Shown here in pieces: positions 2,619-50,391 of a stretch of DNA of 64,000 bases (position 1 is the first letter of the stretch; each line of letters opens with the position of its first letter). The stretch is taken from the NCBI GenBank assembly GCA_003566775.1, contig PXBW01000079.1, positions 18,635-82,634 on the forward strand, given 5' to 3'. The notes beneath the pieces are model-generated. The model was given only the letters and a program-made list of their open reading frames with translations. It did no database searches and was not told the DNA's origin. The position numbers and the translations under genes are program-made. Origin of the DNA: a candidate division WS1 bacterium (GTDB taxonomy: Bacteria; Armatimonadota; Zipacnadia; Zipacnadales; UBA5352).

Positions 2619-4904
2619 TCAGTCGTTCATCGCAAGTGCAGCAACCAGCAACTCAGACGGTGACAGGCTCAACACCACGCCGTCGCCCACCAGACGGAAC
2701 TGCTCCGGCTCGCCCACCAGCAACTCCGTGCCCCCAGCCTGCATCGTCAGGGGCATGTGCAGTTCCTGCTCCTCGCTATCGTAGCCAATCGCCACCAGAA
2801 ACCAGGTATCGTTTGCGCCGCGGATCGTGAGCACGCGAGCCTGTCCGGTGTTCAGGGACGGTCCTATGTGCCGGCCCGACCAGCACGCGGTCTCCTCAGA
2901 GTCGATTGCGGTCAGCAGAGCCAATGCCGAGTCTTCGATCAACGCCTCAGTGTACAGTTTCCTTGTGCGTTTGATGGAAGGATGCAGTAGCTCATGGTAG
3001 CAGAGGCTGTGTCCGGCTGCGCGTCTCTCCCCGTCGATCAGCAGAGTGAATCGCTCCTGACCATCGAGCGCGACTACTCCGAGCATGTCATCGACGTTGA
3101 TCCAGTGGCTGTTGATGATCATCTCCTCACGGGGACAGCCGGGGCCCGGTAGTTCATAGTGGGCTTCCTCGCAGGACAGTTCACGGGCGTTATCGTTGAA
3201 GATGTCGTTGGCGATGTTGAGGCACATTCCCTCGTTCAACAGCATCTCCACGGGTCGAACCGTGCGCGCCCGGCTGAGATAGACCGTTGTGCGGCCGTCT
3301 GGAAGTGCGGCGAAGCCCACCTGATGCTCTATAGCGCCATCACAGGCGGCGATTCTGCCGGAGGCGGCGCATCCGCCGTCAAAGACGCTCTCTCGGTGCT
3401 CCAGCACCCGGCGATTGCAGGGGGCCCCTCTTACCGTGAAGCGCGAGATCAGATTGCCCTCCCACTCAGCGAGGTGATCGCCCTCGCGCGGGAGCACGAC
3501 GCCCTGTGCGCCGCAGCGATGGGCGTTCCAGCTCCATCCGGCGAACCTCTCGGGCGAGCGGTGGAATACGAGCCCGCAGTCGGGTTCGATGAAGGGCTCG
3601 GTCAGTTCCTGATCCATCTGTCGCTCCGATACAGGCTCCACGGGTTCGCGGCGCTGATGCCACCGGTACGCGAGTGCCTGATAGTATGCCGGATCTACCT
3701 GACTGCGGTAGTACACTGAGGGGGCCGGACGGGTCGGGACGGCCAGATCGGGCCCTTCCTCAATTGCCTTTCTCCAGGCCTCAAGCCGAAGCGCGTTGAT
3801 GGAGCCGTCGCCGTTAGCCTGCTGCTCGCGGCGGAGCAGATCGGCGAGCCTCAGTTCGGCGCGACGCGCCACCGGATCATCAAGCTCATGCTGCACGAAG
3901 ACAAGCACCGGGAGCAGGTAGAGCAGGCCCCAACAGTAGCGCGGATAGTCGTCGCCCGCAGGATATGCGAGAGCGCCGTCCCAGAGGAGGAGCCGGCGCT
4001 GGACGTCCCACACCTCGGGGACATTGCGCAAGAGCGATTCCGGACGCTCGGCACCTGCGTCCTCGAAGGCGTACGCCGCGCTGGCGAGGGAGAGCAATGC
4101 GCGATTCACGTAGCCGGGATGGAAGAACCCGTGGTGTTCGAGTGCGAAGCTGGGGTGCAGATTCGCGCCCGCGTGCCAATCACGGATCGGCCGGCCGTCA
4201 ACGATTGTATCATCTTCGGCATCGGCGGGGGTCGATAGAGCGTTAGTCAGATACGTCAGCATGGCCTCATGCCATCTGTCGGCGCTGTCGTGGTCCGGGT
4301 CATTCAGCAGCGCTCGAGCGAGGATGCAGGCCCGCCACGCATTGCTTTCGGGATAAGACGTCCCGAAGCGCTCCGTCGGCACCGGTGGGCGCTTGCGGTA
4401 GAAGCCGTGATCCACGTGTTCGAGATGGAAGGGCAGCAGGGTGTTAGAATCGGCCTCGTGCTCGATGAGGCGCTTGAGTTGCTCCCGATCCTGATCTTCG
4501 AGGAAGTCGTCAAGCACCTCCGCGGCGAGTGCCATCTGATCGGCCATCTTCGGGGACATGCCGGTCCCACCCCACGCAGGTTCCTTCGGGAACTCGTCGG
4601 GATACGCCCTGTGGGTGTGAAGACAGTAGCGAAACGCGGAAAGTCCGCGATCCGCGCATTCATCGTGGGAAAGCGAGCAACTGTTGAGGTCAAACGTGTC
4701 GTCAGATGCGGCGAGTCCGTGGACGAATGCATAGAGCGAGGTGGCCTCGATTCCGAGCGGGCCGGCGCTGGTCGGCCCGAAGCGTCCGAGGTGCGATGGG
4801 TTCTCGAGGAAGTGGAAGTATCGGGATCCGAAGTCCAACCATTCTGTCACTGCTTCTGCGTAGTGAGGTCCAACCGTTCGGCTGCTACTCATAAGAACCC
4901 CCAT
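2619..4904 (-). CDS. large cytoplasmic hypothetical protein, possibly heparinase II/III-like (alpha/alpha-toroid plus beta-sandwich polysaccharide-lyase fold)
   Basis: 761-aa uninterrupted ORF with no signal peptide. Aromatic/His-rich N-terminal half and beta-rich C-terminal half resemble heparinase II/III-family lyases. Assignment by resemblance only. Confidence 0.4.
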   Translation of the reverse strand: MGVLMSSSRTVGPHYAEAVTEWLDFGSRYFHFLENPSHLGRFGPTSAGPLGIEATSLYAFVHGLAASDDTFDLNSCSLSHDECADRGLSAFRYCLHTHRAYPDEFPKEPAWGGTGMSPKMADQMALAAEVLDDFLEDQDREQLKRLIEHEADSNTLLPFHLEHVDHGFYRKRPPVPTERFGTSYPESNAWRACILARALLNDPDHDSADRWHEAMLTYLTNALSTPADAEDDTIVDGRPIRDWHAGANLHPSFALEHHGFFHPGYVNRALLSLASAAYAFEDAGAERPESLLRNVPEVWDVQRRLLLWDGALAYPAGDDYPRYCWGLLYLLPVLVFVQHELDDPVARRAELRLADLLRREQQANGDGSINALRLEAWRKAIEEGPDLAVPTRPAPSVYYRSQVDPAYYQALAYRWHQRREPVEPVSERQMDQELTEPFIEPDCGLVFHRSPERFAGWSWNAHRCGAQGVVLPREGDHLAEWEGNLISRFTVRGAPCNRRVLEHRESVFDGGCAASGRIAACDGAIEHQVGFAALPDGRTTVYLSRARTVRPVEMLLNEGMCLNIANDIFNDNARELSCEEAHYELPGPGCPREEMIINSHWINVDDMLGVVALDGQERFTLLIDGERRAAGHSLCYHELLHPSIKRTRKLYTEALIEDSALALLTAIDSEETACWSGRHIGPSLNTGQARVLTIRGANDTWFLVAIGYDSEEQELHMPLTMQAGGTELLVGEPEQFRLVGDGVVLSLSPSELLVAALAMND

Positions 4905-5192
4905 TCCGTCCGATCATCTATACATGTCAGACACGGGTTTACAGTAGGCCCTCAGTCTTCGAGGACGACATGATCGGGCGGGTCGCGGATCCATGAGAGC
5001 AGTTCCTGCATGATCCTCCGACACCGTGGCCCTCAGACAGGGGAATTGCCGTCTGCTGATGTCGCCCCGCACAAAGGTGTAACCTTCGGAAAAGCGAACC
5101 TGTTACCTGACCCTCCTTTCCACTGTCCTGAGATGTAATTCAGTCTTAAAGAAACACCAGCGGGCGCAATAAGTTCCAGGAGGAAAGATATC

Positions 5193-8611: not shown

Positions 8612-9853
8612 CTATCTCAGTTCATCCACGTTATAGCGAATCTTCGCGATCGCCCCCAGCATCAGGTCCATGTCCTCGGTGCCGCCGAGGAAGAGGCGGT
8701 GCGTCAGCGAGACACCCTCCTCGGCGTGTATGCGGTCGCATTCAGGGGTATGCGCTGAGGCGTAGTCGGGCGGATCGTTGTCGCCGAAGCACGCCGGTCC
8801 CCAGTGGCGCTTCGTGAAGAGCGGGTTCTTCTGGATCGGCGCGAGGTGTCCGGTGCCCACGCTGAGGCCCTCCGCCGCCAGCGCCTCGCCGAACTGCTGC
8901 CGCGAGATGCCGCCGAACTCCTCGGAGTTGAACTTGAAGTGGTAGAAGTAGAAGTTCCAGCGCGTTACCCAGTCGGCGCGCTCAATCGGAGCGACGCCCT
9001 CGATCTCGCGCAGGCCCGCTTCGAGGTGTCTCGCGTTGCGGTCGCGCGTCTCCGCCTGCTCCTCGAGCCTGCCGAGGCCTCCCAGCAGCACCGCCGCCTG
9101 GAACTCGGTCATCCGCAGGTTGCTGGCGACGATGTGATGCTCGTAGAATGGTCGGCCCTCGAAGCGTCCGATGTGATGGAAGCTGAACAGCTTCTGCGCC
9201 AGGTCCTCGTCGCTGGTGAGGCAGATGCCGCCCTCCCCCGCGGTAAGCGTCTTGCCCATCTGCAGCGAGAAGCAGCCGATGTCGCCGATGGAGCCGCAGC
9301 CGTGACCGTTCCACGTCGAGCCATGGGCATGGGCGGCGTCCTCGATGATCCAGAGGCCGTGCCGCTCGGCGATCTCCCTCAGTGCGGCCATGTCCGCGGG
9401 GTAGCCGCCATAATGCACGGGAGCGATGCCCACCGTCCGCTCGGTGATCGCCGCCTCGACCGCCGCTGGATCGATCTGGTAGTTAGCCGGGTCGATGTCC
9501 ACGATGATCGGGATCGCGTTCACCAGGATGCAGGCGGTCGCGGTCGCGACGAAGGTCGCCGCCGGGCAGATCACCTCGTCACCGGGGCGGATGTCCAGCG
9601 CCTTCAGCGCGCACTCGATCGCCTGGGTGCCGTTGGTCAGCGCGACGCCGTGCTTCGCATCGTGGAAGTCGGCGAAGGCCTGTTCGAACTGGGCCACTCT
9701 CGAGGTCTCCGCGTCACCACCTCCGCGCCACCAGCGCCCGGACTCAAGCACCTCCAGCAGATTATCGCGTTCGGTCTGGTCGAAGATCGGCCAGTCCTTG
9801 CCAATCTGTCGGTCGATGGTTTTCGGGCCGCCGTTGATCGCCAGCTTTGCCAC
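8612..9853 (-). CDS. DegT/DnrJ/EryC1/StrS-family PLP-dependent aminotransferase (sugar aminotransferase)
   Basis: Conserved INGGxP start and PLP-lysine region (SLQMGKTLTAGEGG). Aspartate-aminotransferase fold type I. I place the start at the GTG at 9851-9853, which has an AGGGAGG RBS. The ORF track extends to 10024 with an implausible Arg-rich leader. Confidence 0.85.
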   Translation of the reverse strand: MAKLAINGGPKTIDRQIGKDWPIFDQTERDNLLEVLESGRWWRGGGDAETSRVAQFEQAFADFHDAKHGVALTNGTQAIECALKALDIRPGDEVICPAATFVATATACILVNAIPIIVDIDPANYQIDPAAVEAAITERTVGIAPVHYGGYPADMAALREIAERHGLWIIEDAAHAHGSTWNGHGCGSIGDIGCFSLQMGKTLTAGEGGICLTSDEDLAQKLFSFHHIGRFEGRPFYEHHIVASNLRMTEFQAAVLLGGLGRLEEQAETRDRNARHLEAGLREIEGVAPIERADWVTRWNFYFYHFKFNSEEFGGISRQQFGEALAAEGLSVGTGHLAPIQKNPLFTKRHWGPACFGDNDPPDYASAHTPECDRIHAEEGVSLTHRLFLGGTEDMDLMLGAIAKIRYNVDELR

Positions 9854-10218
9854 TGTTCGCGCCTCCCTTGACTGCTCGATGCTGCGGTGTGATGCTTTGC
9901 GGTCACACCGACGGTCCCCTTCTCCGCTGGCGCAGCGTATCCTGCATTGACGGTAATGCTGTTCCGGTTGTCCAACGACCCCCGGCGAGGGCGCCGGGGC
10001 CACAACGACAACGGCCGAACGCATACGGGTGGTCCGAGCGACGTTGCGCAGGAACGTTGGGAGGACCGGGAGGGCGCCGTGAGCCGTCGCACGAATCTTC
10101 TACCGGTGCAGGGTCACGGGCATCGAGAATGAATCGCCTGCAGTCCGCTCCGGGCGCAGGATAATCTCCCCGCGCGTGGAAGGGGGCGGGACGAACCGCA
10201 CAACTCAGGGGAACTTCT

Positions 10219-11436
10219 GTGGGAGGAGACAGAGCAGTGCAGCGCACTTACGCAGGTGATGATTCCGGACGGGCATGCGCGGTGACGCGCGGCCCGAAGC
10301 ACCATTGGTTCGGCTACTACGACAAGTGTCCGTGGAGCGCCGACGGGCGCTACATGCTGGCGATGGAAGCGGATTTCATGGATCGTCCGGGCCGCCCCGA
10401 TGATTCGATTCGCGTCGGCCTGGTAGATCTCGAGGAGGGCGACGGGGAATTCCACGCGCTCGACGAAACCCACGCGTGGTGCTGGCAGCAGGGCACGATG
10501 CTGCAGTGGCTCGGCACCGACCCGAATCGCCTGATCATCTACAACTCCGTGGAGGACGGGCGGTACGTCTCGATCATCCGCGACATTCACTCCGGCGAGA
10601 CGCGGACGATTCCGCGACCCATCTATGCAGTCAGTCCCGACGGGACACAGGCGATCGGCCTGAATTTCGCGCGCGTGAATCGGACCCGTCCGGGTTACGG
10701 CTACCGGGCCCTTCCTGACCCCACCGAAGGCGAGATGCATCCCGAGGACGATGGAATCTGGCATATTGACCTCGAGACGGGCGAGACTGAGCTTGTCATC
10801 ACCATCGATCAGATCGTCGGCATCGCTTATCGCCAGAGCATGGAGAACGAGAACTGGTTCAATCATATGCAGTTCTGCACCGATGGTAGCCGCTTTGTCT
10901 GGCTGCACCGCTGGTACCGACCGGGCGCCGCGAGCGACAAGTTCAGCGGTAAGGCGCGCTTCACCCGCATGTTCACCGCAAACCCGGACGGCTCGGACAT
11001 CTACCTGCTGGCCGACGACGATATGGTCTCACACTTCGACTGGCTCGATGAGCGGCATATCGTTGCGTGGGCGCAGCATCGGCAGATCGGAAGCCGGTAC
11101 TTCCTCTACCGCGATGAGAGCCCGTGGCTTTCGGTCGTCGGCGGCGACGTCTTCACCAGCGACGGGCATATGTCGTACTCACCAGGCGACCGGAGGTACT
11201 TGCTCACGGACACCTATTGGGACGCGGAGATGAAGCGCTCGCTTCTTATCTATGACACGGAGACCGGCGCGCGCGCGGACCTCGGGCGCTTCCTGTCGCC
11301 GAGGCGCTACTCCGAGGAGATTCGCTGCGACCTGCACCCGCGCTGGAATCGCGACGGCACGCAGGTGTGCTTCGACTCGATCCACGAGAGCACGCGGCAG
11401 ATGTACGTGATCGACCTCGAAGGCATCGTGGAGTAG
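10219..11436 (+). CDS. oligogalacturonide-lyase-family (TolB-like beta-propeller) protein
   Basis: About 400 aa. Repeated DG/SPDG blade motifs and a C-terminal CDLHPRWNRDGTQVCFDS motif typical of the Ogl family. Likely start is the in-frame GTG at 10237, 9 nt after a GGGAGGAG RBS. Confidence 0.55.
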   Translation: MGGDRAVQRTYAGDDSGRACAVTRGPKHHWFGYYDKCPWSADGRYMLAMEADFMDRPGRPDDSIRVGLVDLEEGDGEFHALDETHAWCWQQGTMLQWLGTDPNRLIIYNSVEDGRYVSIIRDIHSGETRTIPRPIYAVSPDGTQAIGLNFARVNRTRPGYGYRALPDPTEGEMHPEDDGIWHIDLETGETELVITIDQIVGIAYRQSMENENWFNHMQFCTDGSRFVWLHRWYRPGAASDKFSGKARFTRMFTANPDGSDIYLLADDDMVSHFDWLDERHIVAWAQHRQIGSRYFLYRDESPWLSVVGGDVFTSDGHMSYSPGDRRYLLTDTYWDAEMKRSLLIYDTETGARADLGRFLSPRRYSEEIRCDLHPRWNRDGTQVCFDSIHESTRQMYVIDLEGIVE

Positions 11437-11485
11437 GGCCGTCGGCTAACGCACAGCAACCCGCGTCGGTTGGGAGGCGCATTCG

Positions 11486-12178
11486 ATGATCTGTTACATA
11501 GTCACCGAGACGCGCGAGAAGTACGATGAGATGGACTGCCACGCAATCAAGCACGACCTCGAGAAGCTCAGCGGCGACCTGTGCCTGGTCATGCACTTCA
11601 GCCAGGTGACGCGCGAGTTTGTCGATGATGTACGGCCGTGGGCGATCTGCCACTCGGGAAAGTCCACGCCGCTGGCCGAGTACGACCTGATGGAGCATGA
11701 GCAATACCGGTGGCTCATCACCGAGTCCGGTGTTCCGCAGATCGGCTTCTGTGGTGGCAAGAACATCATCGTGGAGATGTTCGGCGGCTCCACCGGCAGG
11801 ATGCGCGAGCTGCGGCCCGATGAGCCGGACCTCGCGCCACAGTACCGCCAGGGCTGGTTCAAGGAGTGGGGCGTGTGGCCCATCGAGATCGTGGCCGACG
11901 ATCCGCTCTTCGCATGGCTCGACAGCCCGATCCGGGTCTGGGTCATGCACTGCGGCGAGACGACGATGATCCCCGAGGGCTTCCGGCTTCTCGCCTCGAG
12001 CGCCGACTGCCGGGTCCAGGCGCTGGTGCATGAGGAACTGCCGCTCTACGGCACACAGTTCCATCCCGAGAAGCGCCAGGAGGGCTATCCGGACGGTTTC
12101 CGGGTGCTCTCCAACTTCTTTGACATCGCGCGCGAGCACCATGCATCGCAATCACGGCCGCCGGGAGGCACCAGATGA
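11486..12178 (+). CDS. class-I glutamine-amidotransferase-like protein (peptidase C26 / PuuD-like gamma-glutamyl hydrolase family), copy 1
   Basis: 230 aa. Nucleophile elbow GFCGG and C-terminal YGTQFHPE (His-Glu of the Cys-His-Glu triad). Stop overlaps the next start (ATGA). Confidence 0.75.
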   Translation: MICYIVTETREKYDEMDCHAIKHDLEKLSGDLCLVMHFSQVTREFVDDVRPWAICHSGKSTPLAEYDLMEHEQYRWLITESGVPQIGFCGGKNIIVEMFGGSTGRMRELRPDEPDLAPQYRQGWFKEWGVWPIEIVADDPLFAWLDSPIRVWVMHCGETTMIPEGFRLLASSADCRVQALVHEELPLYGTQFHPEKRQEGYPDGFRVLSNFFDIAREHHASQSRPPGGTR

Positions 12179-12834
12179 TCTGCTATATCGTGACCGAGAC
12201 ACGCGAGAAGTACGACGAGATGGACTGCCACGCGATCAAGCACGACCTCGAGAAGCTCAGCGACGACCTGTGCCTGGTCATGCACTTCAGCCAGGTGACG
12301 CGCGAGTTCGTCGATGATGTACGGCCGTGGGCGATCTGCCACTCGGGAGGCTCGACGCCGCACGACGAGTACGACGTGCTTGAACGCGAGGATTACACCT
12401 GGCTGATCACCGAATCGGGCGTTCCGCAGATCGGTTTCTGCGGCGGGCATCAACTGATCGCGGAGATGTTCGGCTCCGAGGTGGGCACCATGCGCGAGCT
12501 TCGCGACGACGAAGCGGATCTCAATCCCGACTATCATCCGGGTTTGTTCAAGGAGTCGGGCGTCTGGCCGGTCAGGATCATAGCTGAGGACCCGCTGTTT
12601 GAGGGCCTACCCGAGCTAATCCGGGTGCGACAGTCCCATCGCAGCGAGGTCAAACAGCTTCCCGCGAGCTTCCGGCTATTGGCGTCGAGCGCCGACTGCG
12701 AGATCCAGGCGATAGTGCACGAAGAGATGCCGCTCTACGGAACGCAGTTTCACCCGGAGAGCCGCCTGGAGAACTATCCGGACGGCCATGCGATCGTGAG
12801 CAACTTCTTCGGCATTGCGCGAGAGCGCGGATAG
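12175..12834 (+). CDS. class-I glutamine-amidotransferase-like protein (peptidase C26-like), copy 2 (tandem paralog)
   Basis: 219 aa. First ~58 residues identical to copy 1 except one substitution, and the first ~170 nt are nearly identical. Same GFCGG and YGTQFHPE motifs. The remainder diverges to roughly 60% identity. Confidence 0.75.
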   Translation: MICYIVTETREKYDEMDCHAIKHDLEKLSDDLCLVMHFSQVTREFVDDVRPWAICHSGGSTPHDEYDVLEREDYTWLITESGVPQIGFCGGHQLIAEMFGSEVGTMRELRDDEADLNPDYHPGLFKESGVWPVRIIAEDPLFEGLPELIRVRQSHRSEVKQLPASFRLLASSADCEIQAIVHEEMPLYGTQFHPESRLENYPDGHAIVSNFFGIARERG

Positions 12835-12913
12835 CGGGCAACGAGCCGGGCGGTTGCCGTCCACTGTGCAGCTTGCCCGTCACTGCCGTCACCGTCTTGA
12901 AAGGACGATCCTC

Positions 12914-14314
12914 ATGCGCTTCATGGAGCCGGAGGACCTCGCGCGCATCAACGAGCGCAGCCTCGATCTGCTGGAAGAGATCGGACTGCGCATCGACCAC
13001 GAACTTGTGACCGAGAAGCTACTTGCCGCCGGCTGTCGCGAGCTTACCTCCGGGATGATCTCCTTCCCGCGCGAGCTTGTCGCCGCGTGTCTGGAGCAGG
13101 CGCCGTCGGAGGTGCTGCTTGCGCCGGTCGAGGGTGAGCCCGCTCGCATCGGCCCCGGCGGCGACACGGTCTTCTGGACCGGCAACGCGCTCAGCTACGT
13201 CGAGGGAACCGAGGCCCGCCCGATCAATGAGCCGGAATTCATCGCCCTGACCCGTGTCACCGACGCGCTGGAGCACGCACAGGCGGCGGTGGGCCCCACG
13301 ATCGACGATATCCCCGCGCAGTTCCGCGACTTCGTGGGATGCCGGATGCTTGCGCAGCACACGCGCAAGCACCTGCGCCCGTGCATATACACACCCCGCG
13401 GCGGGGCGGCGATCGTCGAGATGGGCCGCGTGCTGGCAGATCCGGATCCGCTGCGCGAGCGGCCGGTGGTCAGCTTCGGGTATACGTCGGTCAGTCCCCT
13501 GCACTGGACTGAGCCGGGGCTGGAGATGTTCGTGCAGACCTCCGGACACGGTGTGCCGATGATGATCAACTCCGAGCCGACCGCGGGCGCGACCTCACCC
13601 GTCACGCTCGGAGGAACGCTGATGCTCGCGAATGCTGAGGCGCTGTCGGGCGTGGTAATCGTGCAGACGCTCGAACCCGGTCGTCCGTGCGTCTTCAACC
13701 TCGGCTTCGCGCACACGATGGACATGCGCCACGCGATCACGCGCACCGGCGGGCCTGAGAACGGTATCATGGGCGCAATCGGCGCGGAGCTTGCGCGCAT
13801 GCACGGGCTGCCGAGCGCCTCATGGATGAGCACCGAGTCGATGGTGGTCGACGAGCAGGCGGCGTGGGAGAAGATGAACGTGGGCCTGATGCACGCGCTC
13901 GCGGGCGTCAATATCATCTGGGGCATGGGGCAGCTTGAGTCACAGCGCGTGCTGTCTCCGGAGATGATGGTGATCGACGACGAGATCGCGGGCGCCGCGC
14001 TGCGGGCGGCGAGAATGCCCGAGGTTGACGACGAATCGCTGGTATATGACGCGGTCGCGGAGATGGCCGCCGTGCCTGACTACCTCAGCCACCCGCACAC
14101 CCTCGCCTACTTTCGCACCGAGCTTTTCGAGCCGTCGCTGGGCTTCGTCGGGCGGCGTGAGGGCTGGGAGGCAGAGGGTGCGCGGTCCGCAGTGGAGAGG
14201 GCGCGCCAGCGAGTGGACGAGATCCTCGCGCGGCCAGAGCAGCCGCGTCTCGACGAGGACCGCGAGCGCGAACTGCTGCGCATAGAGTCGCGCTGGAAGG
14301 AGGAGCTTGCGTGA
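12914..14314 (+). CDS. MttB-family (trimethylamine / glycine-betaine:corrinoid methyltransferase superfamily, non-pyrrolysine) protein
   Basis: About 466 aa from the ATG at 12914, with a GAAAGGACG RBS. C-terminal family signature VPDYLSHPHTLAYFRTELFEPSL. Uninterrupted: no in-frame amber codon. The ORF track starts further upstream at 12815. Confidence 0.7.
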   Translation: MRFMEPEDLARINERSLDLLEEIGLRIDHELVTEKLLAAGCRELTSGMISFPRELVAACLEQAPSEVLLAPVEGEPARIGPGGDTVFWTGNALSYVEGTEARPINEPEFIALTRVTDALEHAQAAVGPTIDDIPAQFRDFVGCRMLAQHTRKHLRPCIYTPRGGAAIVEMGRVLADPDPLRERPVVSFGYTSVSPLHWTEPGLEMFVQTSGHGVPMMINSEPTAGATSPVTLGGTLMLANAEALSGVVIVQTLEPGRPCVFNLGFAHTMDMRHAITRTGGPENGIMGAIGAELARMHGLPSASWMSTESMVVDEQAAWEKMNVGLMHALAGVNIIWGMGQLESQRVLSPEMMVIDDEIAGAALRAARMPEVDDESLVYDAVAEMAAVPDYLSHPHTLAYFRTELFEPSLGFVGRREGWEAEGARSAVERARQRVDEILARPEQPRLDEDRERELLRIESRWKEELA

Positions 14315-14787
14315 CCGGTGACGCGGTGCATCGCGAGCGGCAGTGGGTTGGCTGGTGGGTGCATCTGGTCATGGCTGCGCTGCTGGTGGGCGGTGTCCTG
14401 ACGGAACTGGGCGTCGATGATGAGCCACAGTCATCTCTGCTTCTCGTTGTACTGGTGGTAATCATCGGACTGCTCTACCTCGTGCTGATGCCGATGGAGG
14501 TCGAGGTGGTCAATGAGAAGATGGAAGTTCGCTTCGGTCAGTTCGGTCGGCCTCGCTGGCGTTTCGATCTGGACCGAATACGAGGCGCGCGGCAGGTCGA
14601 GTTTTCCCCGCTGAAGGATTACGGCGGCTGGGGCATCCGCACGAGACGCGGGAAGGTATGTCTGAATCAGCGCGGAGATCGCGGGGTCGAGTTTGACTAT
14701 AACGAGCGGACCTACGTCGTTGGCAGCGATGATCCGGAGAGGCTGTTGGAAGCGCTGAGCGAGGCGGGTGCCGGCAGCGCGCAGTGA
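14311..14787 (+). CDS. membrane-anchored bacterial PH-domain (bPH) protein
   Basis: 158 aa. Two predicted TM helices, then a bPH-like motif (DYGGWGIRTRRGKVCLN...VVGSDDPERLLEAL). Start overlaps the MttB stop (GTGA). Confidence 0.55.
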   Translation: MTGDAVHRERQWVGWWVHLVMAALLVGGVLTELGVDDEPQSSLLLVVLVVIIGLLYLVLMPMEVEVVNEKMEVRFGQFGRPRWRFDLDRIRGARQVEFSPLKDYGGWGIRTRRGKVCLNQRGDRGVEFDYNERTYVVGSDDPERLLEALSEAGAGSAQ

Positions 14788-14911
14788 ATCTACCGAAGAG
14801 AGCCGTGGCGAACGGGATGACGTGGAAGCAATACAGGCCCAATGCTGAAGCGGGCGGCCCGAAGTCGGGCCGCCCGCGGTTTGCTGCAACTGACGCAACG
14901 ACAGGTTCGGC

Positions 14912-16582
<1,671 letters not shown>

Positions 16583-20714: not shown

Positions 20715-21833
20715 TCAGAGATTGAACATCGGCACGTCGGTCGGCTCCGGTATTCCGTAGATCTCCCGCTTGGTGCGCAGGTAGAACAGGTAGTCATCGT
20801 AGCTCACATCCGGCGGCACACGGTGATCGACGTGGGGTATGAAGCCGCCCTCATCGACCAGCGGTTTGAGGCGCCTGACCTCCTCGACAATGGCGTCCGG
20901 GCCTGCAGCAAGCGCGCGCTTGTTTACCCCGCCCATCATCAGCACCTCCGGCCCCCAGCGCCGACGGATCTCGAGCGGATCGGAGCCTGCCGCGACCTCG
21001 ACCGGGAACATGCAGTTGACCCCACCCTCCAGCCAGCCATCGATGGAGTCGGTAATGTTGCCGTCGGAATCGACGTAACAGAGAGTCGCGCCCATCTGAT
21101 ACATCAGATCGGTGATGCGTGAGTAGCGCGGGGTCAGCCACTGATGAAACATCTTCGGCGAGATGATGCAGCCCTGCTTGAAGTTTATGTCCTCCCAGAA
21201 AGCGCCGCAGTCCACCTCGCAGCCGGCCTCCACCGCAGGCTCGATGACCGCGCAGGCAAGCTGACAGACGTGCTCGACCATCTCCTCGATAAGCTCCGGG
21301 TCGTCGTAGCACATCACTGCGATGCTCTCGAAGCCGATGTAGTTGCGCAGCTTGCCGAAGAGGCTGCCGCCGTGAATCTGCACGGGAAGCTCGGATTCGC
21401 GCGTGCGCCGCGCGATCTCATCCCAGTCATCGCGGTAGCGGGCCGGGTCGTCGATGCGCAGACGCTCGCGGAACTTCTCCCACGACGCGCGGTCCTTTAT
21501 GGGGAACTCGAGATAGCGCGGGATGGTGTCCTGTTCGTCGAGGTACATGATCTTCTTCACGCCCTCGGCGTCCTGCACAACCTTGTATTCGTCGGTCTGC
21601 TCGATGACGGTGGTCTCGAACGGCGGATGCAGACCGACTGCCGAGGGGACCGTCATTCTTCCCTCGAAGCCGAAGAACTCGTCGGCGACCTCGTTGTTGT
21701 CGATCTCCCCGGGAAGTCCCTCCTGGTGCCATCTCGTAAAGGTATCATCCCAGTAGCCGAACTCCCGGTCGGGTACGTGATCGACCGGCTCGTAACTCAT
21801 GCACGCCACGAAGCGCTGTCGCTGATTCATCAT
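20715..21833 (-). CDS. uroporphyrinogen-decarboxylase (URO-D)-family protein (MtaA/CmuA-like methyltransferase fold), function unknown
   Basis: 372 aa. URO-D-family TIM-barrel features and length. No corrinoid protein gene nearby. Confidence 0.7.
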   Translation of the reverse strand: MMNQRQRFVACMSYEPVDHVPDREFGYWDDTFTRWHQEGLPGEIDNNEVADEFFGFEGRMTVPSAVGLHPPFETTVIEQTDEYKVVQDAEGVKKIMYLDEQDTIPRYLEFPIKDRASWEKFRERLRIDDPARYRDDWDEIARRTRESELPVQIHGGSLFGKLRNYIGFESIAVMCYDDPELIEEMVEHVCQLACAVIEPAVEAGCEVDCGAFWEDINFKQGCIISPKMFHQWLTPRYSRITDLMYQMGATLCYVDSDGNITDSIDGWLEGGVNCMFPVEVAAGSDPLEIRRRWGPEVLMMGGVNKRALAAGPDAIVEEVRRLKPLVDEGGFIPHVDHRVPPDVSYDDYLFYLRTKREIYGIPEPTDVPMFNL

Positions 21834-38056: not shown

Positions 38057-39358
38057 ATGCAGAGGGCCGCTTCAAGCCGGGCGATGCTTGAGCGATGCGA
38101 GACCTCCTCTGCTGTCCAGGTGGATGAGAGAGTGATCGAGGTGCCGAAGACTTACGAAGAGATCAACGCAAAGATAGGCGCTGGCGACGTGGTGGTGGTC
38201 ACCGCCGAGGAGATGGTGGATGTCGTCGATGACCTCGGAGCCGAAGAGGCCGCGGAGAAGATCGACGTGGTCACCACCGGAACCTTCGGCCCGATGTGTT
38301 CATCGGGGGCCATGATCAACGTCGGGCACGCAACGCCCCGGATCCGCATCTCGCGCGCGTGGCTGAACGACGTGCCTGTCGGCTGCGGTCTGGCGGCGGT
38401 AGACCTGCACATCGGTGCGACCGAGGTGGCCGAGGGAGATCCGCTCAACCGCGAGCATCCGGGCCTGTTCGAGTATGGCGGTGCGCACGTGATAGAGGAC
38501 CTGATAGCCGGTAAGGACGTCCGGCTTAAGGCGCTATCCTACGGGACTGACTGCTATCCGCGGCGGGAGCTTGACACCTGGGTGAATATAGCGGACCTGA
38601 ACGAAGCCTACATGCTCAATCCACGCAACGCATATCAGAACTATAATGTGGCGGTCAACAAGTTCGCCGACCGCGACATATACACCTACATGGGCGTGGT
38701 GAAGCGGGGCCTTGGCAGCGCGAACTACTGCTCGGCGGGACAGCTAAGCCCGCTGCTCAATGATCCACACTACCGGACCATAGGAATCGGTTCAAGGATA
38801 TTCCTCGGCGGCGCTCAGGGCTTCGTCTACTGGCAGGGAACCCAGCACGATCCTACCTGTGAGCGTACCGAGGGGGGAGTGCCCACCGGCGGCGCCGGGA
38901 CTCTCGCGACCGTTGGTGACCTCAAGCAGATGGACAAGCGCTATGCGATGGGAGTGAGCATGTACGGCTACGGGGTCTCCCTTGCACTGGGGATCGGCAC
39001 GGTGATTCCGATCCTTGATGCCGAGATGGCGCGGTTCACCGCCGTCAGCGACGCAGAGATCGTGGCTCCGGTCATAGATTACAGCCATAACTACGGACAT
39101 AACGAGGGCGAACCTCTCGCACATGTCTCCTACGCAGAACTGAAGAGCGGGGCGATCGAACTCGAGGGAAAGACCGTGCCCACCACGCCTCTGTCCAGTT
39201 ACGTGCGCGCAAGAGAGATCGCACAGAAGCTCAAAGAGTGGATCGAGCAGGGGCAGTTCATGTTGAGTGAGCCGGTGCAGGCGCTCCCGTCGGCGGAGGA
39301 ATCCGCGGGATTCCGCCCGCTGAAGCATCGTCCGGTCAAACAGGAAGGCGGCGAATGA
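38057..39358 (+). CDS. homocysteine biosynthesis protein, COG1900/DUF39 family (methanogen-type sulfur-incorporation enzyme, MA1821-like)
   Basis: 433 aa, full-length similarity pattern to DUF39. Immediately followed by its canonical NIL-ferredoxin partner. True start may be an internal Met (MLERCE). Confidence 0.8.
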   Translation: MQRAASSRAMLERCETSSAVQVDERVIEVPKTYEEINAKIGAGDVVVVTAEEMVDVVDDLGAEEAAEKIDVVTTGTFGPMCSSGAMINVGHATPRIRISRAWLNDVPVGCGLAAVDLHIGATEVAEGDPLNREHPGLFEYGGAHVIEDLIAGKDVRLKALSYGTDCYPRRELDTWVNIADLNEAYMLNPRNAYQNYNVAVNKFADRDIYTYMGVVKRGLGSANYCSAGQLSPLLNDPHYRTIGIGSRIFLGGAQGFVYWQGTQHDPTCERTEGGVPTGGAGTLATVGDLKQMDKRYAMGVSMYGYGVSLALGIGTVIPILDAEMARFTAVSDAEIVAPVIDYSHNYGHNEGEPLAHVSYAELKSGAIELEGKTVPTTPLSSYVRAREIAQKLKEWIEQGQFMLSEPVQALPSAEESAGFRPLKHRPVKQEGGE

Positions 39359-39359
39359 G

Positions 39360-39776
39360 ATGGCTGAGAAAGCTGAGACAAGGGTGGTCCTGCATTTTCC
39401 GAAGGCGCTGCTGGACAAGCCGTTGACATCAACCGTGGTACGGCGATTCAATCTCGACTTCAACATATTGCGGGCCGATGTCGGGCGCGACCAGGAGGGA
39501 CTGATGGTGCTCGGCCTCGTGGGTGCCCCTGAGAGCATCGAAGGCGCCATCGAGTGGATGCGCGAGCAGGGAGTGCGCGCGCAGCCGCTGGAACAGGATG
39601 TTCTGCGGGATCGCGATCGCTGCACAGACTGCGGGGCGTGTATCGTGATCTGCCCGACCGACGCACTTGTGATCGACCCTCAGACAGGCGAGGTCATCTT
39701 CAACGCCGACGAGTGCGTGGCCTGTGGCATCTGTGTCCCGGTCTGTCCACCTCGCGCGATGTCGATCAAGTTCTGA
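39360..39776 (+). CDS. NIL-domain plus 4Fe-4S ferredoxin protein (COG2122-type partner of COG1900, MA1822-like)
   Basis: 138 aa. N-terminal NIL-like domain, then two CxxCxxCxxxCP ferredoxin motifs (CTDCGACIVICP, CVACGICVPVCP). 2 nt after the upstream gene. Confidence 0.85.
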   Translation: MAEKAETRVVLHFPKALLDKPLTSTVVRRFNLDFNILRADVGRDQEGLMVLGLVGAPESIEGAIEWMREQGVRAQPLEQDVLRDRDRCTDCGACIVICPTDALVIDPQTGEVIFNADECVACGICVPVCPPRAMSIKF

Positions 39777-44560: not shown

Positions 44561-45508
44561 TTACGCACCGAGCATCGCCCACGCCTGCTGGAAGGCGCGC
44601 TTGGTGCCTGCGATCAGCAGGTCGGAATCCTCATCACCGACCGGTGCTACCTCAAAGGTCACGATCGGCCTGTCAGTCGGAAGCTCCTTGTCGAAGTAGC
44701 CCACGTATATCAGCGTCTCGAGGAAGCGCACCAGATCCTCGACGTCGTTCTCGCTGCCCGGATAGCCGAAGCCGGGGTGCTTGTCACCGTAGGCATCATG
44801 GTGCTCGTCTTCCATCAAGGCGTTGCCCACGTGGATGTGGATCAGGTGATCGACGGTGGGCGCGAGGAACTCCTGCGCGCTCTCGCTCAGAAGCGGCATG
44901 TGTGAGAGGTCCTGCGTCAGACCGAAGTTGTGCACCTGCTCCTTGACGCGATCCGCAAGCTCGACCGCGCGCGGCGTGGGCCCGATGAGCGAGCACTTGT
45001 CGATCGTGTCATCGAACTGCTCAAGCGAGAGCCACACCGGCTCCCCGTCGCCCGCCTTGCTCTGCGAGTACTCGCAAAGCTCCACGCACGAATCCACCAT
45101 CGCAGCCATCGCGCTGTCGCGGTCCTCCGGGTTGTCCGGTCCGGAGAGGAAAGCACAGATCCGGCAGCCCAGTTCGTACGCCTGATCGATCGAGTTCTTC
45201 ACTGCGTCCACGGCCTTCTTCCGCTCGCCGTCATCAAGCGAGTTGATGTCGAGTTGGTTGATAAGCAGCGGCGGCTGTGAGCCCATCCCGAGCTTGATGT
45301 GGCTGGTCATTGCGATCTGCTTGAGCCCGTCAATTACCCCCTGATGCTGACTGGGGCGGACCTCCAGCACCTGAAAGAAATCGTCGAGGGCGATCTTCCT
45401 TGCGGTCTCGAGGATCATGTCAGGGTCATCGTCCTGGATGATCGGGTAGGCCATGAAGTGAACGATCCCGAGGTCCATCATGTCGCGCCAGTGTTTGTCG
45501 CTGTACAT
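44561..45508 (-). CDS. sugar phosphate isomerase/epimerase-like TIM-barrel protein
   Basis: 315 aa. Xylose-isomerase-like TIM-barrel pattern (FEVAPVGDED, HIHVGN). Confidence 0.65.
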   Translation of the reverse strand: MYSDKHWRDMMDLGIVHFMAYPIIQDDDPDMILETARKIALDDFFQVLEVRPSQHQGVIDGLKQIAMTSHIKLGMGSQPPLLINQLDINSLDDGERKKAVDAVKNSIDQAYELGCRICAFLSGPDNPEDRDSAMAAMVDSCVELCEYSQSKAGDGEPVWLSLEQFDDTIDKCSLIGPTPRAVELADRVKEQVHNFGLTQDLSHMPLLSESAQEFLAPTVDHLIHIHVGNALMEDEHHDAYGDKHPGFGYPGSENDVEDLVRFLETLIYVGYFDKELPTDRPIVTFEVAPVGDEDSDLLIAGTKRAFQQAWAMLGA

Positions 45509-45809
45509 AACTATCCTCCCGTGCGCCGTGAGTGCGGCGCCGAACGTTACTTACACACGGAGTGGGCCCGCAAGCGGGCGCCGATGCTCCGGAGTTGTTG
45601 CCGGTACCAGTTATTCTCCGATGCACCGGCAATTCCTCCACCGATCTCACATTCCTGCGGCAACTCCTCGGCAGAAAGCGGGGTTCTCACCAGCGACTTC
45701 TCCGGTGGGCCTTCACCGGACGGTGGCGGAATCCCGATGCAGGTCATGGGGCATCGACGGAGAAATGCCCCCCAGGCTCTGTATCAACGGAAGGAGAGCT
45801 ACCTTGAAG

Positions 45810-47105
45810 ATGAACCGGCTGGTCATGATGGCTGCGGCGATGTCTCTGTGTACGGCCGTTATCGCGCAGGACAATCCCTCGCCCCCTGAGGAACCGTCCC
45901 GCGTGCTGGCCATCGTCGAGGACACTGAGATTAGCTCTGATGACCTCTGGTGGTTTATGGAGCAGACGCGCGGGGGCGATATACTCGATGAACTGATACT
46001 GAGCCGACTGCTTGACGCAGAGGCGAAGCAGAAGCAGATCAACATCGGGGAGCCGGATGTGGACGAGGCGCTCGCCCGGTTGCGGGAGCAGTATGCCACT
46101 GAGGAGGAATTCAGCCGCTGGCTGGCAGAGAGCGGTCAGACACTCAAGGGGCTCAGGATGCAGTTGCAGCAGGAGCTTCTCATCGACCGCCTGCTGGAGG
46201 AGCGCATGGGGCTCACCGATGAGGGTATCCGAAGATACTACGAATCACATCCGCACGAGTTCACCGAGGAACCGCGCGTACGTCTGCTGGACATAGTGAC
46301 AGACACGATCGCCGACGCCTTCGCGGCGCGTGAGCGGCTGGCCGCTGGGGAATCTTTCGCCGAAGTTGCGCGCGAGATGTCGCAGGACCCAACCGCCAAG
46401 GAGGGCGGCGATCGTGGCTGGCTCACGCCCGAGGACGTTCGCAATGCGGATCTGCGTGAAGTCATATTCGAGTTGCAGGAGGGCGAGGTCTCCGATCCGA
46501 TCGAAGCGGTGGATCACTTTCACGTGCTCTATGCGCGGGAGGCAGTTCCCGGCCGCCTGCCGGATCTGGAGGAGGTGCGCCCGCAGGTGATTGAGCGTAT
46601 CCGTGAGCGGCGTGGCATCTCGGAGGAACTCTTCCTGGCACTGCTCAAGCGCCGTGCCGAGATCGAGGTCAGATGGCCCGAGCATCAACATCTAAACGAC
46701 TACTACGCCGATCTGAGCAGAATCAAGGTCGTTGTCGATGATCGGCGCGTCGAGGTTCCGGTGGAGCCGCGTCTGCTGCCGAACTCGAATCTGATAGTGC
46801 CGGCTCAGCCTCTTCTCGAGGCGATGGGCGCTGACGTGGCGTGGAGCGAGGAGGCCGGTGTGCTGGAGGTGCGGCGGGATGGCGTCACTCTCCGCATGGT
46901 CCAGGGCCTCGATATAATGGCCACGGGTGAAGAGGAGCGACGGATGCCGGAGCCGGCGCGACGGGAGGACGGCGTGCTGATGATCTCGCCGCGCGCGCCC
47001 GTATCTGCACTCGGCGGCGAGCTTTTCTGGAACCGCGCGGACAATACTTTGTATGTTAACTCGTACATCGACGATACGGTCGGAGAGATGAACGAACTCC
47101 CGTAG
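45810..47105 (+). CDS. secreted SurA/PrsA-like parvulin peptidyl-prolyl isomerase with C-terminal Cu-amine-oxidase-N-terminal-like domain
   Basis: Signal peptide MNRLVMMAAAMSLCTAVIAQ. SurA-like chaperone N-domain. PpiC/parvulin motif (VAREMSQDPTAKEGGDRGWL). C-terminal domain (IVPAQPLLEAMGADVAWSEEAGVLEV) resembling the Cu_amine_oxidN1 beta domain. AAGGAGAG RBS before the ATG at 45810; the ORF track starts at 45480. Confidence 0.65.
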   Translation: MNRLVMMAAAMSLCTAVIAQDNPSPPEEPSRVLAIVEDTEISSDDLWWFMEQTRGGDILDELILSRLLDAEAKQKQINIGEPDVDEALARLREQYATEEEFSRWLAESGQTLKGLRMQLQQELLIDRLLEERMGLTDEGIRRYYESHPHEFTEEPRVRLLDIVTDTIADAFAARERLAAGESFAEVAREMSQDPTAKEGGDRGWLTPEDVRNADLREVIFELQEGEVSDPIEAVDHFHVLYAREAVPGRLPDLEEVRPQVIERIRERRGISEELFLALLKRRAEIEVRWPEHQHLNDYYADLSRIKVVVDDRRVEVPVEPRLLPNSNLIVPAQPLLEAMGADVAWSEEAGVLEVRRDGVTLRMVQGLDIMATGEEERRMPEPARREDGVLMISPRAPVSALGGELFWNRADNTLYVNSYIDDTVGEMNELP

Positions 47106-47277
47106 CCACATCGGGCGCAGGGGAGTCGTCGGGGATGGGCGGCCTCTGCAGCGGCAGGGGCCGCGCTCTGTGACCGAAGGCATTCAGTACATGACACCAG
47201 ACACTACTGCCGAGGGACTGCGCAACTGGCTTATGTCCGTGGCGAGGCCGCAGGGAAGCCCTGTCTGAGGGAGATTA

Positions 47278-48729
47278 TTGGCCCACTCCAGCCCCCAACC
47301 AGCGGAAGTACCGGTCCTGCGTATACTGCACGAGCGCCCGGACGAGTGCGCCCACCGCACGCTTACGCGGGGGCAGGCACTCGCTGTCCTCTTCATCCTC
47401 GCTCTACTGATCGCTCTGATCGCCTGGCGGCCGCTTGCGAGCCTGATCGTCCTGAACGCTCTCGCCATCATCTTCTACGTTGTGCACTCGCTATACAAGT
47501 TCTACCTCGTATATGTCTCGCTCGAGCGTCCAGTCCTGTTCGACGCAACTGAGGATGAACTACGCGATCTCGACGAGGCGACGCTGCCCACCTACACCCT
47601 GCTGATTCCCCTGTATCGCGAGGCCGCGGTACTGCACAGACTCGTTCAGGGCGTCAGAAACCTCGACTACCCCGTCGAGAAGCTTGACGTGATGCTTCTG
47701 CTGGAAGAAGACGACACTGAGACGATCGCTGCCGCGGAGGCCATGGATCTTCCCCCACACATTCGGCCCGTGGTCGTGCCCGACAGTGAGCCGAAGACCA
47801 AGCCGAAGGCCTGTAACTACGGGCTCTTCACCTGTGAGACCGATCTGCTGGTCATCTACGACGCCGAGGATCGGCCTGAGCCGGATCAGCTCAAGAAGGC
47901 GGCCATCGCATTCCGTCGCGCGCCCGATGACGTGGTATGCATTCAGGCGAAGCTCAACTACTACAACCAGCGGCAGAATCTGCTCACCCGCTGGTTCACC
48001 GCCGAGTACTCCGTCTGGTTCGACCTCTTCCTGCCCGGACTGACGGCCTCCGGCGCGCCCGTGCCCCTTGGTGGCACCAGCAATCACTTCCGCGTCGATG
48101 TGCTGAAGGAGCTTGGCGGCTGGGACCCGTTCAACGTGACCGAGGACTGCGACCTCGGCGTGCGCCTGCACAAGCACGGCTGGCGCACCGCGATGCTCGA
48201 CTCGACCACCTGGGAGGAGGCGAACGGGGCGTTCTTCTCGTGGTTCCGCCAGCGCTCGCGCTGGGTCAAGGGTTACCTGCAGACATGGCTTGTGCATACG
48301 CGCAGACCGCTTCGAATCATCAGCGAACTCGGGCTCGCGGGCTGGTTCTCTTTTCAGATGACTATCGGCGGCTCGCTCGTATGTTTCCTGATCAACCCGA
48401 TCTACTGGGCGATGACGATCTACTGGCTGTTCACACACGCAGGCTTCATCAGCGTCCTCTTTCCGCCCGCGATCTACCTGCTGGGCAGTTTCTGCCTCTT
48501 CGGCGCCAACTTCGTCTTCGTGTATATGGCCGTCGCCGGATGCATGCATCGGGGGTACTACGACCTCGTGAAGTACTCCCTGCTCACTCCCGTTTACTGG
48601 CTGATGATGAGTATAGGGGCGTACAAGGCCTTCGCGCAGATCATCGTACGCCCGCATTACTGGGAGAAGACCGACCACGGTATCTTCGAATTCGAGGATG
48701 CCGGGTTCGACGACGGTGATTCCGCATGA
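47278..48729 (+). CDS. membrane-embedded family-2 glycosyltransferase (processive, cellulose/chitin-synthase-like, QxxRW motif)
   Basis: N-terminal TM helices. GT-A catalytic core with DAED (DxD) and TED. FRQRSRW (QxxRW) motif. Several C-terminal TM helices. 483 aa. Confidence 0.8.
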   Translation: MAHSSPQPAEVPVLRILHERPDECAHRTLTRGQALAVLFILALLIALIAWRPLASLIVLNALAIIFYVVHSLYKFYLVYVSLERPVLFDATEDELRDLDEATLPTYTLLIPLYREAAVLHRLVQGVRNLDYPVEKLDVMLLLEEDDTETIAAAEAMDLPPHIRPVVVPDSEPKTKPKACNYGLFTCETDLLVIYDAEDRPEPDQLKKAAIAFRRAPDDVVCIQAKLNYYNQRQNLLTRWFTAEYSVWFDLFLPGLTASGAPVPLGGTSNHFRVDVLKELGGWDPFNVTEDCDLGVRLHKHGWRTAMLDSTTWEEANGAFFSWFRQRSRWVKGYLQTWLVHTRRPLRIISELGLAGWFSFQMTIGGSLVCFLINPIYWAMTIYWLFTHAGFISVLFPPAIYLLGSFCLFGANFVFVYMAVAGCMHRGYYDLVKYSLLTPVYWLMMSIGAYKAFAQIIVRPHYWEKTDHGIFEFEDAGFDDGDSA

Positions 48730-50294: not shown

Positions 50295-50391
50295 CTGTGA
50301 AAGGCAATCGTGGCAAAGCGTCTTTCTGTATTGCGTTGCTCGGAACACCTCACTCTTCCAACGAGCATATCGGATAAGAGGGATGATCGGA

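Follow-up and report, generated by a model that had tools for sequence, protein, structure and literature searches.

A clade-limited string of five genes with a non-pyrrolysine MttB homologue and class I amidotransferase-like proteins in a candidate division WS1 bacterium

Does a tightly packed string of five genes, one of which codes for a homologue of the MttB methyltransferases, act as a single functional unit, and should the lack of a corrinoid gene around it be read as a sign of unusual chemistry? This question is raised by a stretch of 64,000 nucleotides (nt) from a candidate division WS1 bacterium (assembly GCA_003566775.1, contig PXBW01000079.1, positions 18,635 to 82,634), hereafter called the window, in which the genes code in turn for a beta-propeller protein, two glutamine amidotransferase (GATase)-like proteins (GAT1 and GAT2), the MttB homologue, and a small membrane protein. 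The reading to which we lean, by a slight preference, is that of a lineage-specific and probably co-transcribed string made of two gene pairs, in which the MttB homologue would be a substrate:corrinoid methyltransferase with partners encoded elsewhere. The five-gene combination is new as far as found, yet it is confined to one lineage and unstable there.

The string starts with the propeller gene (10237..11436, + strand, 399 amino acids, aa), for which the start at 10237 is likely, an earlier alternative being 10219. It continues with the GAT1 gene (11486..12178, +, 230 aa), the GAT2 gene (12175..12834, +, 219 aa), the MttB homologue gene (12914..14314, +, 466 aa), and the membrane-protein gene (14311..14787, +, 158 aa). 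For the MttB homologue, the ATG at 12914, as in the public record, is the likely start rather than the TTG at 12815, from which a longer open reading frame (ORF) runs. The propeller and GAT1 genes are separated by 49 nt and the GAT2 and MttB genes by 79 nt, while the two other junctions, read directly from the sequence, are 4-nt start/stop overlaps: an ATGA at 12175..12178 (+), where the ATG of GAT2 overlaps the stop of GAT1 behind a GGGAGG ribosome-binding site located 8-13 nt upstream, and a GTGA at 14311..14314 (+) between the MttB and membrane-protein genes, with a GGAGG-like site upstream. The five co-directional, closely spaced genes at 10.2-14.8 kb and the two overlaps, on which a preliminary description of this DNA had built its candidate operon, are therefore real features of the locus. 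Codon-position values typical of genes in this genome (guanine-cytosine content of 0.72-0.85 at third and 0.38-0.47 at second positions, in a sequence of 63% overall) indicate that the five ORFs are real genes, and the same genes, in the same order and identical or 99% identical, are found on the NCBI contig SLON01000143.1 (GCA_007132485.1) and on one ENA contig. No terminator-like site was detected in any gap of the string. Five co-directional genes alone would be expected by chance about once in 16 cases; the start/stop overlaps and their conservation in relatives point to more than chance. The string thus has, as predicted from sequence, the layout of an operon: its genes share one strand, overlap or are separated by short gaps, show no terminator between them, and keep their order in relatives.

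The conservation of this layout was followed by tblastn in 116 loci, for which MttB, the propeller, or the GATase served as the anchor (individual loci are designated below by L numbers). According to the source records, the window and its closest relatives belong to the Armatimonadota, several of them to 'Candidatus Zipacnadia'. The order formed by a DegT gene on the reverse strand, the propeller, GATase, MttB, and membrane-protein genes on the forward strand, and groEL on the reverse strand (14912-16555 in the window, where it makes up the downstream flank) recurs only at an MttB identity of at least 67%. In this range, the propeller-GATase-MttB order is seen in about 11 of the 14 distinct loci with enough upstream sequence, including L115 at 67%, and all four gene kinds are found together in 7 of the 12 distinct loci with enough sequence on both flanks. 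At lower identity the association vanishes: no homologue of the propeller, the GATase, or the membrane protein was found near MttB genes of 45-58% identity in about 70 loci, nor any GATase or MttB near propellers of about 55% identity in three loci, and three loci with a GATase of 50-57% identity have as neighbours an MFS transporter, proB/proA-like genes, and a URO-D-like gene. The co-occurrence across genomes on which the preliminary description had made its case depend is thereby borne out within one clade and fails beyond it.

Within this clade, the string behaves as two tighter pairs, the propeller with the GATase and MttB with the membrane protein. The propeller/GATase junction measures 9-132 nt and is unbroken in all 15 loci that have both genes, with a 4-nt overlap in L115, and in 12 of 15 distinct loci the MttB and membrane-protein genes overlap by 4 nt ([AG]TGA), with membrane proteins down to 42-52% identity. 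The GATase/MttB junction between the two pairs is variable, being of 55-213 nt in about 11 loci and of 643 nt in L016; it holds a second GATase in the window, L038, and L042, and an M14-like gene on the same strand in L029, L035, and L040, such a gene also lying directly upstream of MttB in L041. In L040 (242-1348, +), this gene codes for a 368-aa zinc-carboxypeptidase-like protein with an HxxE motif, whose Pfam match (E 3.7e-4) falls just under the threshold, and the gaps around it are of 3-5 nt. Besides, both pairs can lose parts: upstream of MttB, L003/L008, L004, L011, L036, and L037 have neither the propeller nor the GATase, and no membrane-protein gene accompanies MttB in L010, L016, L018, L040, and L115. 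In the MttB tree, the loci without the propeller and GATase are nested among loci with both, which implies that the pairs became separated at least twice. A 399-aa gene upstream of MttB in L003 was considered as an inverted propeller homologue and rejected as unrelated. Regarding the proposal of a functional unit, the operon-like layout is therefore sound, whereas a conserved five-gene unit is not found, the string being restricted to one clade, with GAT1 as an accessory member and parts lost in several lineages.

The MttB homologue itself is well anchored in its superfamily. Its match to Pfam PF06253 reaches 247 bits (cutoff 25, E 3e-73) over residues 23-496 of the long ORF, a single-sequence PDB search aligns residues 7-455 with the solved MtgB (9yce/2qne, E 1e-42), and a PDB profile search with the subfamily profile retrieves the pyrrolysine-containing (Pyl) MttB 7xcl over positions 2-462 (E 2.6e-74), so that the membership claimed earlier is confirmed over the full length, as is the absence of pyrrolysine: the gene has no in-frame amber codon, its score with the Pyl-MttB equivalog model TIGR02369 (275 bits) lies under the cutoff of 525, and the position equivalent to Pyl334 is Ser306, encoded by AGC at 13829-13831 and invariant in the subfamily. 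This homology extends over the full length to MtgB, MtpB, MtcB, MtyB, and Pyl-MttB, whereas the window protein differs from these characterised enzymes by low identity, by the absence of the MtgB substrate residues, and by the Ser at the Pyl site. More precisely, the residues that bind glycine betaine in MtgB, namely Y97, R312, H348, and F356 (PMC13080624), correspond to Asn91, Ala302, a gap next to Trp336, and Gln344, and since they are not conserved, the substrate would differ from glycine betaine. Relatives at 45-100% identity make up one tight subfamily, set apart in the tree by a long branch from actinobacterial homologues at 31% identity and characterised by a length of about 467 aa, its own invariant aromatic and polar residues, a set of conserved residues in the pocket, and the invariant Ser at the pyrrolysine position; its hosts are mainly Armatimonadota, with Latescibacterota, Terriglobia, and Planctomycetota also named in the source records. 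By its sequence, the protein is thus a new member of a known superfamily, in a separate subfamily without any characterised member. In a relaxed-E Rfam scan confined to 9700-15200, the sole sub-threshold match was PYLIS_3 at 13829-13928 (+; 20.4 bits against a gathering threshold of 38, E 0.56), which starts exactly at the Ser306 codon; it was rejected as a functional pyrrolysine insertion element and ascribed to coding homology to mttB.

As for the corrinoid partner, neither a B12-binding domain (PF02310/PF02607; Pfam on the 52 called genes) nor the DxHxxG..SxL..GG corrinoid motif (six-frame translations) was found in the 64-kb window, and Rfam at gathering thresholds detected there no cobalamin or other riboswitch. 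When the motif scan was run over 1.25 Mb, comprising the window and the loci, and complemented by tblastn with the corrinoid protein of L102, this locus was the sole positive one. There, a canonical corrinoid protein (2724-3257, +; PF02607 and PF02310, DLHDIG motif) starts 13 nt past the stop of an MttB gene whose product lies inside the subfamily, at 50% identity to that of the window; a corrinoid gene can therefore be a direct neighbour in this subfamily, which is the case once among about 85 loci. The family of URO-D proteins includes MtaA and MtbA, which are enzymes of the type (MT2) that unloads methylated corrinoid proteins. The window has one gene of this family (20715-21833, -), with a weak Pfam match and a position beside a xylose-isomerase-like gene; it was rejected as the MT2 partner, as it has no PDB sequence match and its synteny with MttB does not extend to relatives. 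The earlier statement that the 64 kb hold neither a corrinoid protein nor a methyl-corrinoid methyltransferase hence stands for the former and has to be qualified by this weak match for the latter.

Such an isolated position carries little information about the chemistry. In E. limosum, which has 42 MttB homologues, the three characterised ones (MtpB, MtcB, and MtyB) all use one MtqC/MtqA pair (PMC8604678), and in Ruegeria pomeroyi, mtgB, mtgC, and mtgD lie at separate loci (PMC12478193). The window gene thereby resembles most of the E. limosum homologues and the R. pomeroyi MtgB genes in being an mttB-type gene away from a corrinoid gene (PMC8604678, PMC12478193). Given that partners are often encoded in trans, the absence of a corrinoid gene from the 64 kb is not evidence for unconventional chemistry, and the 'orphan' status that had been taken as a sign of an unusual system does not hold as such, all the more so as L102 has its corrinoid gene adjacent. 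A further observation in the window is an HcyBio gene (COG1900-type homocysteine biosynthesis) followed by a NIL-ferredoxin gene (38057-39776, +); since homocysteine is a methyl acceptor in split methionine synthase/MtgB systems (PMC12478193), the HcyBio gene may be of relevance in this respect.

The two proteins encoded upstream are class I glutamine-amidotransferase-like, as had been proposed from their Cys-His-Glu triad: both match PF00117 (cutoff 22.8) with 53 bits for GAT1 (E 4e-14) and 84 bits for GAT2 (E 1.3e-23), and the catalytic Cys89, His193, and Glu195 are invariant across 16 aligned GATase members. The likeness to PuuD-type gamma-glutamyl amide hydrolases that accompanied this proposal does not withstand comparison. 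The proteins share with PuuD and peptidase C26 the class I amidotransferase fold and the triad, their scores with Pfam Peptidase_C26 (27.6 and 36 bits, E 7.8e-9 for GAT2) exceed the threshold, and some source records label homologues 'gamma-glutamyl-gamma-aminobutyrate hydrolase family'; however, this match is much weaker than that to GATase/GuaA-type models, and no puu genes lie nearby. The best solved relative of GAT2 is the GMP synthase subunit A 2d7j with 92.7 bits, against 23-24 bits for C26-type PDB chains, and the best NCBIfam model for the two proteins is likewise GMP synthase subunit A (NF001975; 84.9 and 101.6 bits, under the equivalog cutoff of 198). With this enzyme (P. horikoshii 2d7j/1wl8) they have in common the triad and the GxCxG nucleophile elbow, whereas their scores lie below the equivalog cutoff, about 17 residues are inserted in them, and their N-terminus has a conserved extension; among the genes of the window, Pfam revealed no ATP-pyrophosphatase (GuaA-B-type) partner in the string or nearby. 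From their sequences, the two proteins are therefore best described as divergent class I amidotransferases that are not PuuD-like.

GAT1 and GAT2 are 74% identical to each other and differ in standing. The GAT2 type is present in every locus with a GATase, and most lineages keep it alone, whereas GAT1-type orthologues, such as P0263, P0266, P0267, and P0268 at 76-81% identity, are found in some lineages only, which makes GAT1 an accessory paralogue. This type also occurs in L038, L042, and other contigs, so the tandem pair is not unique to the window genome. In GAT1, whose motifs read GFCGGKN and HCGET, the catalytic Cys is followed by Lys-Asn where the family has His-Gln. At the DNA level, the first 175 nt or so of the two genes (11486-11660 and 12175-12349) are about 93% identical, successive 60-nt segments matching at 53, 59, and 55 positions, and the remainder is about 68% identical; as orthologous GAT1/GAT2 pairs elsewhere are less alike at the N-terminus, this pattern suggests gene conversion between the tandem paralogues. 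In another setting (L034, 8001-10078), a GATase homologue at 50% identity to GAT2 abuts a URO-D-like gene at 34% identity to that of the window, the start of the latter being the last base of the former, which hints that the GATase family pairs with different partners across lineages.

The first gene of the string encodes a cytoplasmic seven-bladed propeller with a PL22-like fold, closest to oligogalacturonate lyase (Ogl; 3c5m and 3pe7) at 16-17% identity. The Ogl-like propeller of the preliminary description is thus retained at the level of the fold, whereas membership of PL22 by sequence is not: neither PF14583 nor any other Pfam family matched the propeller even at E<=10, Ogl was not retrieved with it in PDB sequence and profile searches, and a sequence link between the two was accordingly rejected, the similarity residing in the fold only. 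It further differs from the PL22 enzymes in that no pectin-utilisation genes lie nearby. The structure paper on YeOGL by Abbott et al. in 2010 reportedly describes a Mn2+-binding His/Gln cluster and a catalytic His. The propeller is a member of a large family of high conservation, in which many His, Arg, and Asp residues are invariant, and the most likely reading is that of a predicted cytoplasmic lyase-like enzyme.

The last gene encodes a protein for which a single-sequence AlphaFold2 model of low confidence (predicted local distance difference test score of 58) gives two N-terminal transmembrane (TM) helices, seven strands, and a C-terminal helix. The order of secondary-structure elements in this low-confidence model is PH-like, and no match was obtained with it in Foldseek at E<=0.001. 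Pfam DUF3093 matches residues 7-73 only, that is, the TM part (E 4.9e-6); weak matches to it were also obtained for 11 of 13 orthologues, and it is hit by 13 of 40 wider relatives, one of these 40 matching bPH_6; at E<=1e-3, the family comprises 2065 cluster representatives. The protein resembles the DUF3093/bPH membrane proteins in its architecture, two TM helices at the N-terminus and then a small domain rich in beta strands and closed by a helix, whereas it differs from them in that its DUF3093 match covers the TM part alone and in that it has no significant structural match. Of the membrane PH-domain protein proposed earlier, the membrane nature is retained, while the PH assignment, which rests on the weak DUF3093 match over the TM part and the low-scoring model, is unproven; a PH-like domain is nevertheless plausible.

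In the two-pair reading, which we hold to be slightly favoured, one pair would combine the cytoplasmic PL22-like propeller enzyme with a stand-alone class I amidotransferase-like hydrolase of the Cys-His-Glu type, present here as two paralogues that would act as glutaminases or amide hydrolases, and the other would consist of the non-pyrrolysine MttB methyltransferase, translationally coupled to the two-helix membrane protein, by which it may be tethered or regulated. Like its characterised relatives, the MttB homologue would demethylate a substrate of the methylated-amine type, presumably neither glycine betaine nor trimethylamine in the pyrrolysine-dependent manner. The methyl group would be accepted by the Co(I) of a corrinoid protein whose gene lies in another part of the genome, and a second methyltransferase would then unload this protein. 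A shared pathway of the MttB homologue and the amidohydrolases is possible. Several observations weigh against this reading. In the 64 kb, neither a corrinoid protein nor a pterin-type methyltransferase nor a RamA-type activase was seen, and a corrinoid gene is adjacent in only one of about 85 subfamily loci, so that corrinoid dependence is here deduced from the superfamily. In addition, the tight same-strand packing outlasts rearrangements of the flanks in L010, L016, and L012, and the repeated insertion of hydrolase-like genes (GAT1-type and M14-like) at the GATase/MttB junction hints at a shared theme, favouring a true functional operon. Finally, in L029 the propeller-GATase pair is intact and the MttB next to it degraded, and the main comparison was anchored on MttB, which leaves propeller-GATase pairs without MttB under-sampled.

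A single catabolic operon is the alternative that deserves most attention, and it is essentially the hypothesis of the preliminary description: the GATase/C26-like and PL22-like enzymes, joined in some lineages by the M14-like one, would free a methylated amine or amino compound from a conjugate such as a gamma-glutamyl compound or another one linked through an amide or a glycan, and MttB would demethylate it through a corrinoid protein encoded elsewhere. None of the results speaks in particular for the gamma-glutamyl-amine version. The same-strand order and short gaps kept down to 67% MttB identity speak for it, as do the propeller/GATase overlap in L115, the cohesion of the trio in L010, L012, and L016 where the DegT and groEL flanks are rearranged, the extra hydrolase-like genes lodged in the same orientation between GATase and MttB with gaps of 3-5 nt in L040, and the lack of a terminator-like site inside the string. 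However, at least two sublineages (L003/L008/L011 and L036/L037) keep MttB and the membrane protein without the propeller and GATase, L029 keeps the propeller and GATase next to a decayed MttB, the three families never co-occur outside the clade among the loci compared, and the GATases resemble glutaminase subunits rather than PuuD-type hydrolases. Moreover, since the whole block from DegT to groEL is syntenic, much of the conservation would be due to shared ancestry, and we regard a single operon of this kind as possible while doubting it. Shared ancestry could also be taken as the entire explanation, the genes being unrelated neighbours in a shallow clade and their overlaps a reflection of a compact genome. 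The block does reach the divergent DegT upstream and groEL/groES downstream in most loci, each accessory part is dispensable in some lineage, and no association is seen outside the clade; against this, the 4-nt MttB/membrane-protein overlap persists at 42-52% identity of the membrane protein and the propeller/GATase junction is unbroken in 15 loci, two features that argue for at least pairwise functional coupling and render mere synteny improbable.

A more radical proposal dispenses with the corrinoid: a glutaminase-type GATase would dock on the MttB-like barrel and supply it with ammonia, making the MttB homologue a glutamine-dependent synthase, as HisH feeds HisF and PdxT feeds PdxS. MttB proteins are indeed TIM barrels (2qne, 7xcl, and 9yce), the GATases are closest to dissociable glutaminase subunits with no fused or obvious synthase partner, their specific insertion of about 17 residues carries invariant residues, and no corrinoid gene lies nearby. 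On the other hand, none of about 70 more distant MttB loci has a GATase, GATase homologues adjoin unrelated genes (proB/proA-like, URO-D-like, and MFS), several members of the clade keep MttB without a GATase, an M14-like gene can split the two, and L102 pairs the MttB subfamily with a corrinoid protein, so that we give this synthase hardly any credence. In a broader form, the GATase or GATases and the MttB barrel would work jointly without corrinoid, either by ammonia channelling of the HisH/HisF kind or by amide cleavage plus demethylation of a glycan- or peptide-derived methylated amine, with the propeller and, in sister lineages, the M14-like peptidase; this is very improbable as well. If true, such a corrinoid-free GATase-MttB or amide-cleavage route would give the large 'orphan' branch of MttB proteins its first function outside the canonical one.

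In the light of the two-pair reading, the string is a modest lead rather than a new pathway; it merits expression studies and does not, as it stands, provide evidence for a novel type of system. Nothing relevant was found in the published literature on MttB in Armatimonadota, on Zipacnadia with MttB or cobalamin, on DUF6785, or on DUF3093. What the window does sample is a coherent and widespread MttB subfamily of about 467 aa, whose hosts are heterotrophs that are not methylotrophic and for the most part belong to the Armatimonadota, and if its substrate were found, corrinoid-dependent demethylation would be extended to new compounds and to new ecological groups in sediments. The clade-specific neighbours (GuaA-like amidohydrolase, PL22-like propeller, M14-like peptidase, and coupled membrane protein) are candidate clues to this substrate, although weak ones, because the association fails outside one lineage.

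Some further features of the loci may be mentioned. Directly downstream of the string, an ORF of 117 aa (14784-15137, +), which shares 4 nt with the stop end of the membrane-protein gene, was considered as a sixth gene and rejected: it lies antisense to the 3' end of groEL, has no family match, and is probably spurious. In L029, which belongs to the metagenome-assembled genome UBA5352, the region 3346-5040 contains an M14-like gene that seems frameshifted and MttB fragments with 59% identity over part of the protein, the propeller, GATase, and groEL being intact; this may reflect either decay of MttB or poor assembly.

Near the distant MttB genes (45-58% identity), the most recurrent neighbours are genes for a DUF6785/DUF6784 membrane protein, usually transcribed divergently from MttB (10 loci: L055, L063, L070, L073, L076, L077, L079, L091, L097, and L101), and for a ceramidase_alk-like protein (6 loci: L021, L051, L053, L054, L064, and L066), these loci possibly stemming from few lineages, which leaves the association unproven. 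The window has copies of both 36-40 kb downstream of its MttB gene (52673-54688, -, and 50383-51792, +, respectively). Another recurrent neighbour of the distant genes is that for a GT-C-like membrane protein of about 555 aa. Lastly, in a WS1 genome (L032, 9273-13868), the propeller homologue is followed by a gene trio coding for a rotamase/Cu_amine_oxidN1 protein, a GT2 glycosyltransferase (68% identical), and a PMT_2-like membrane protein; its window counterpart lies at 45480-50294 (+), 34 kb from the propeller gene, and this arrangement may point to a neighbourhood of envelope and glycan genes with a loose link in function.

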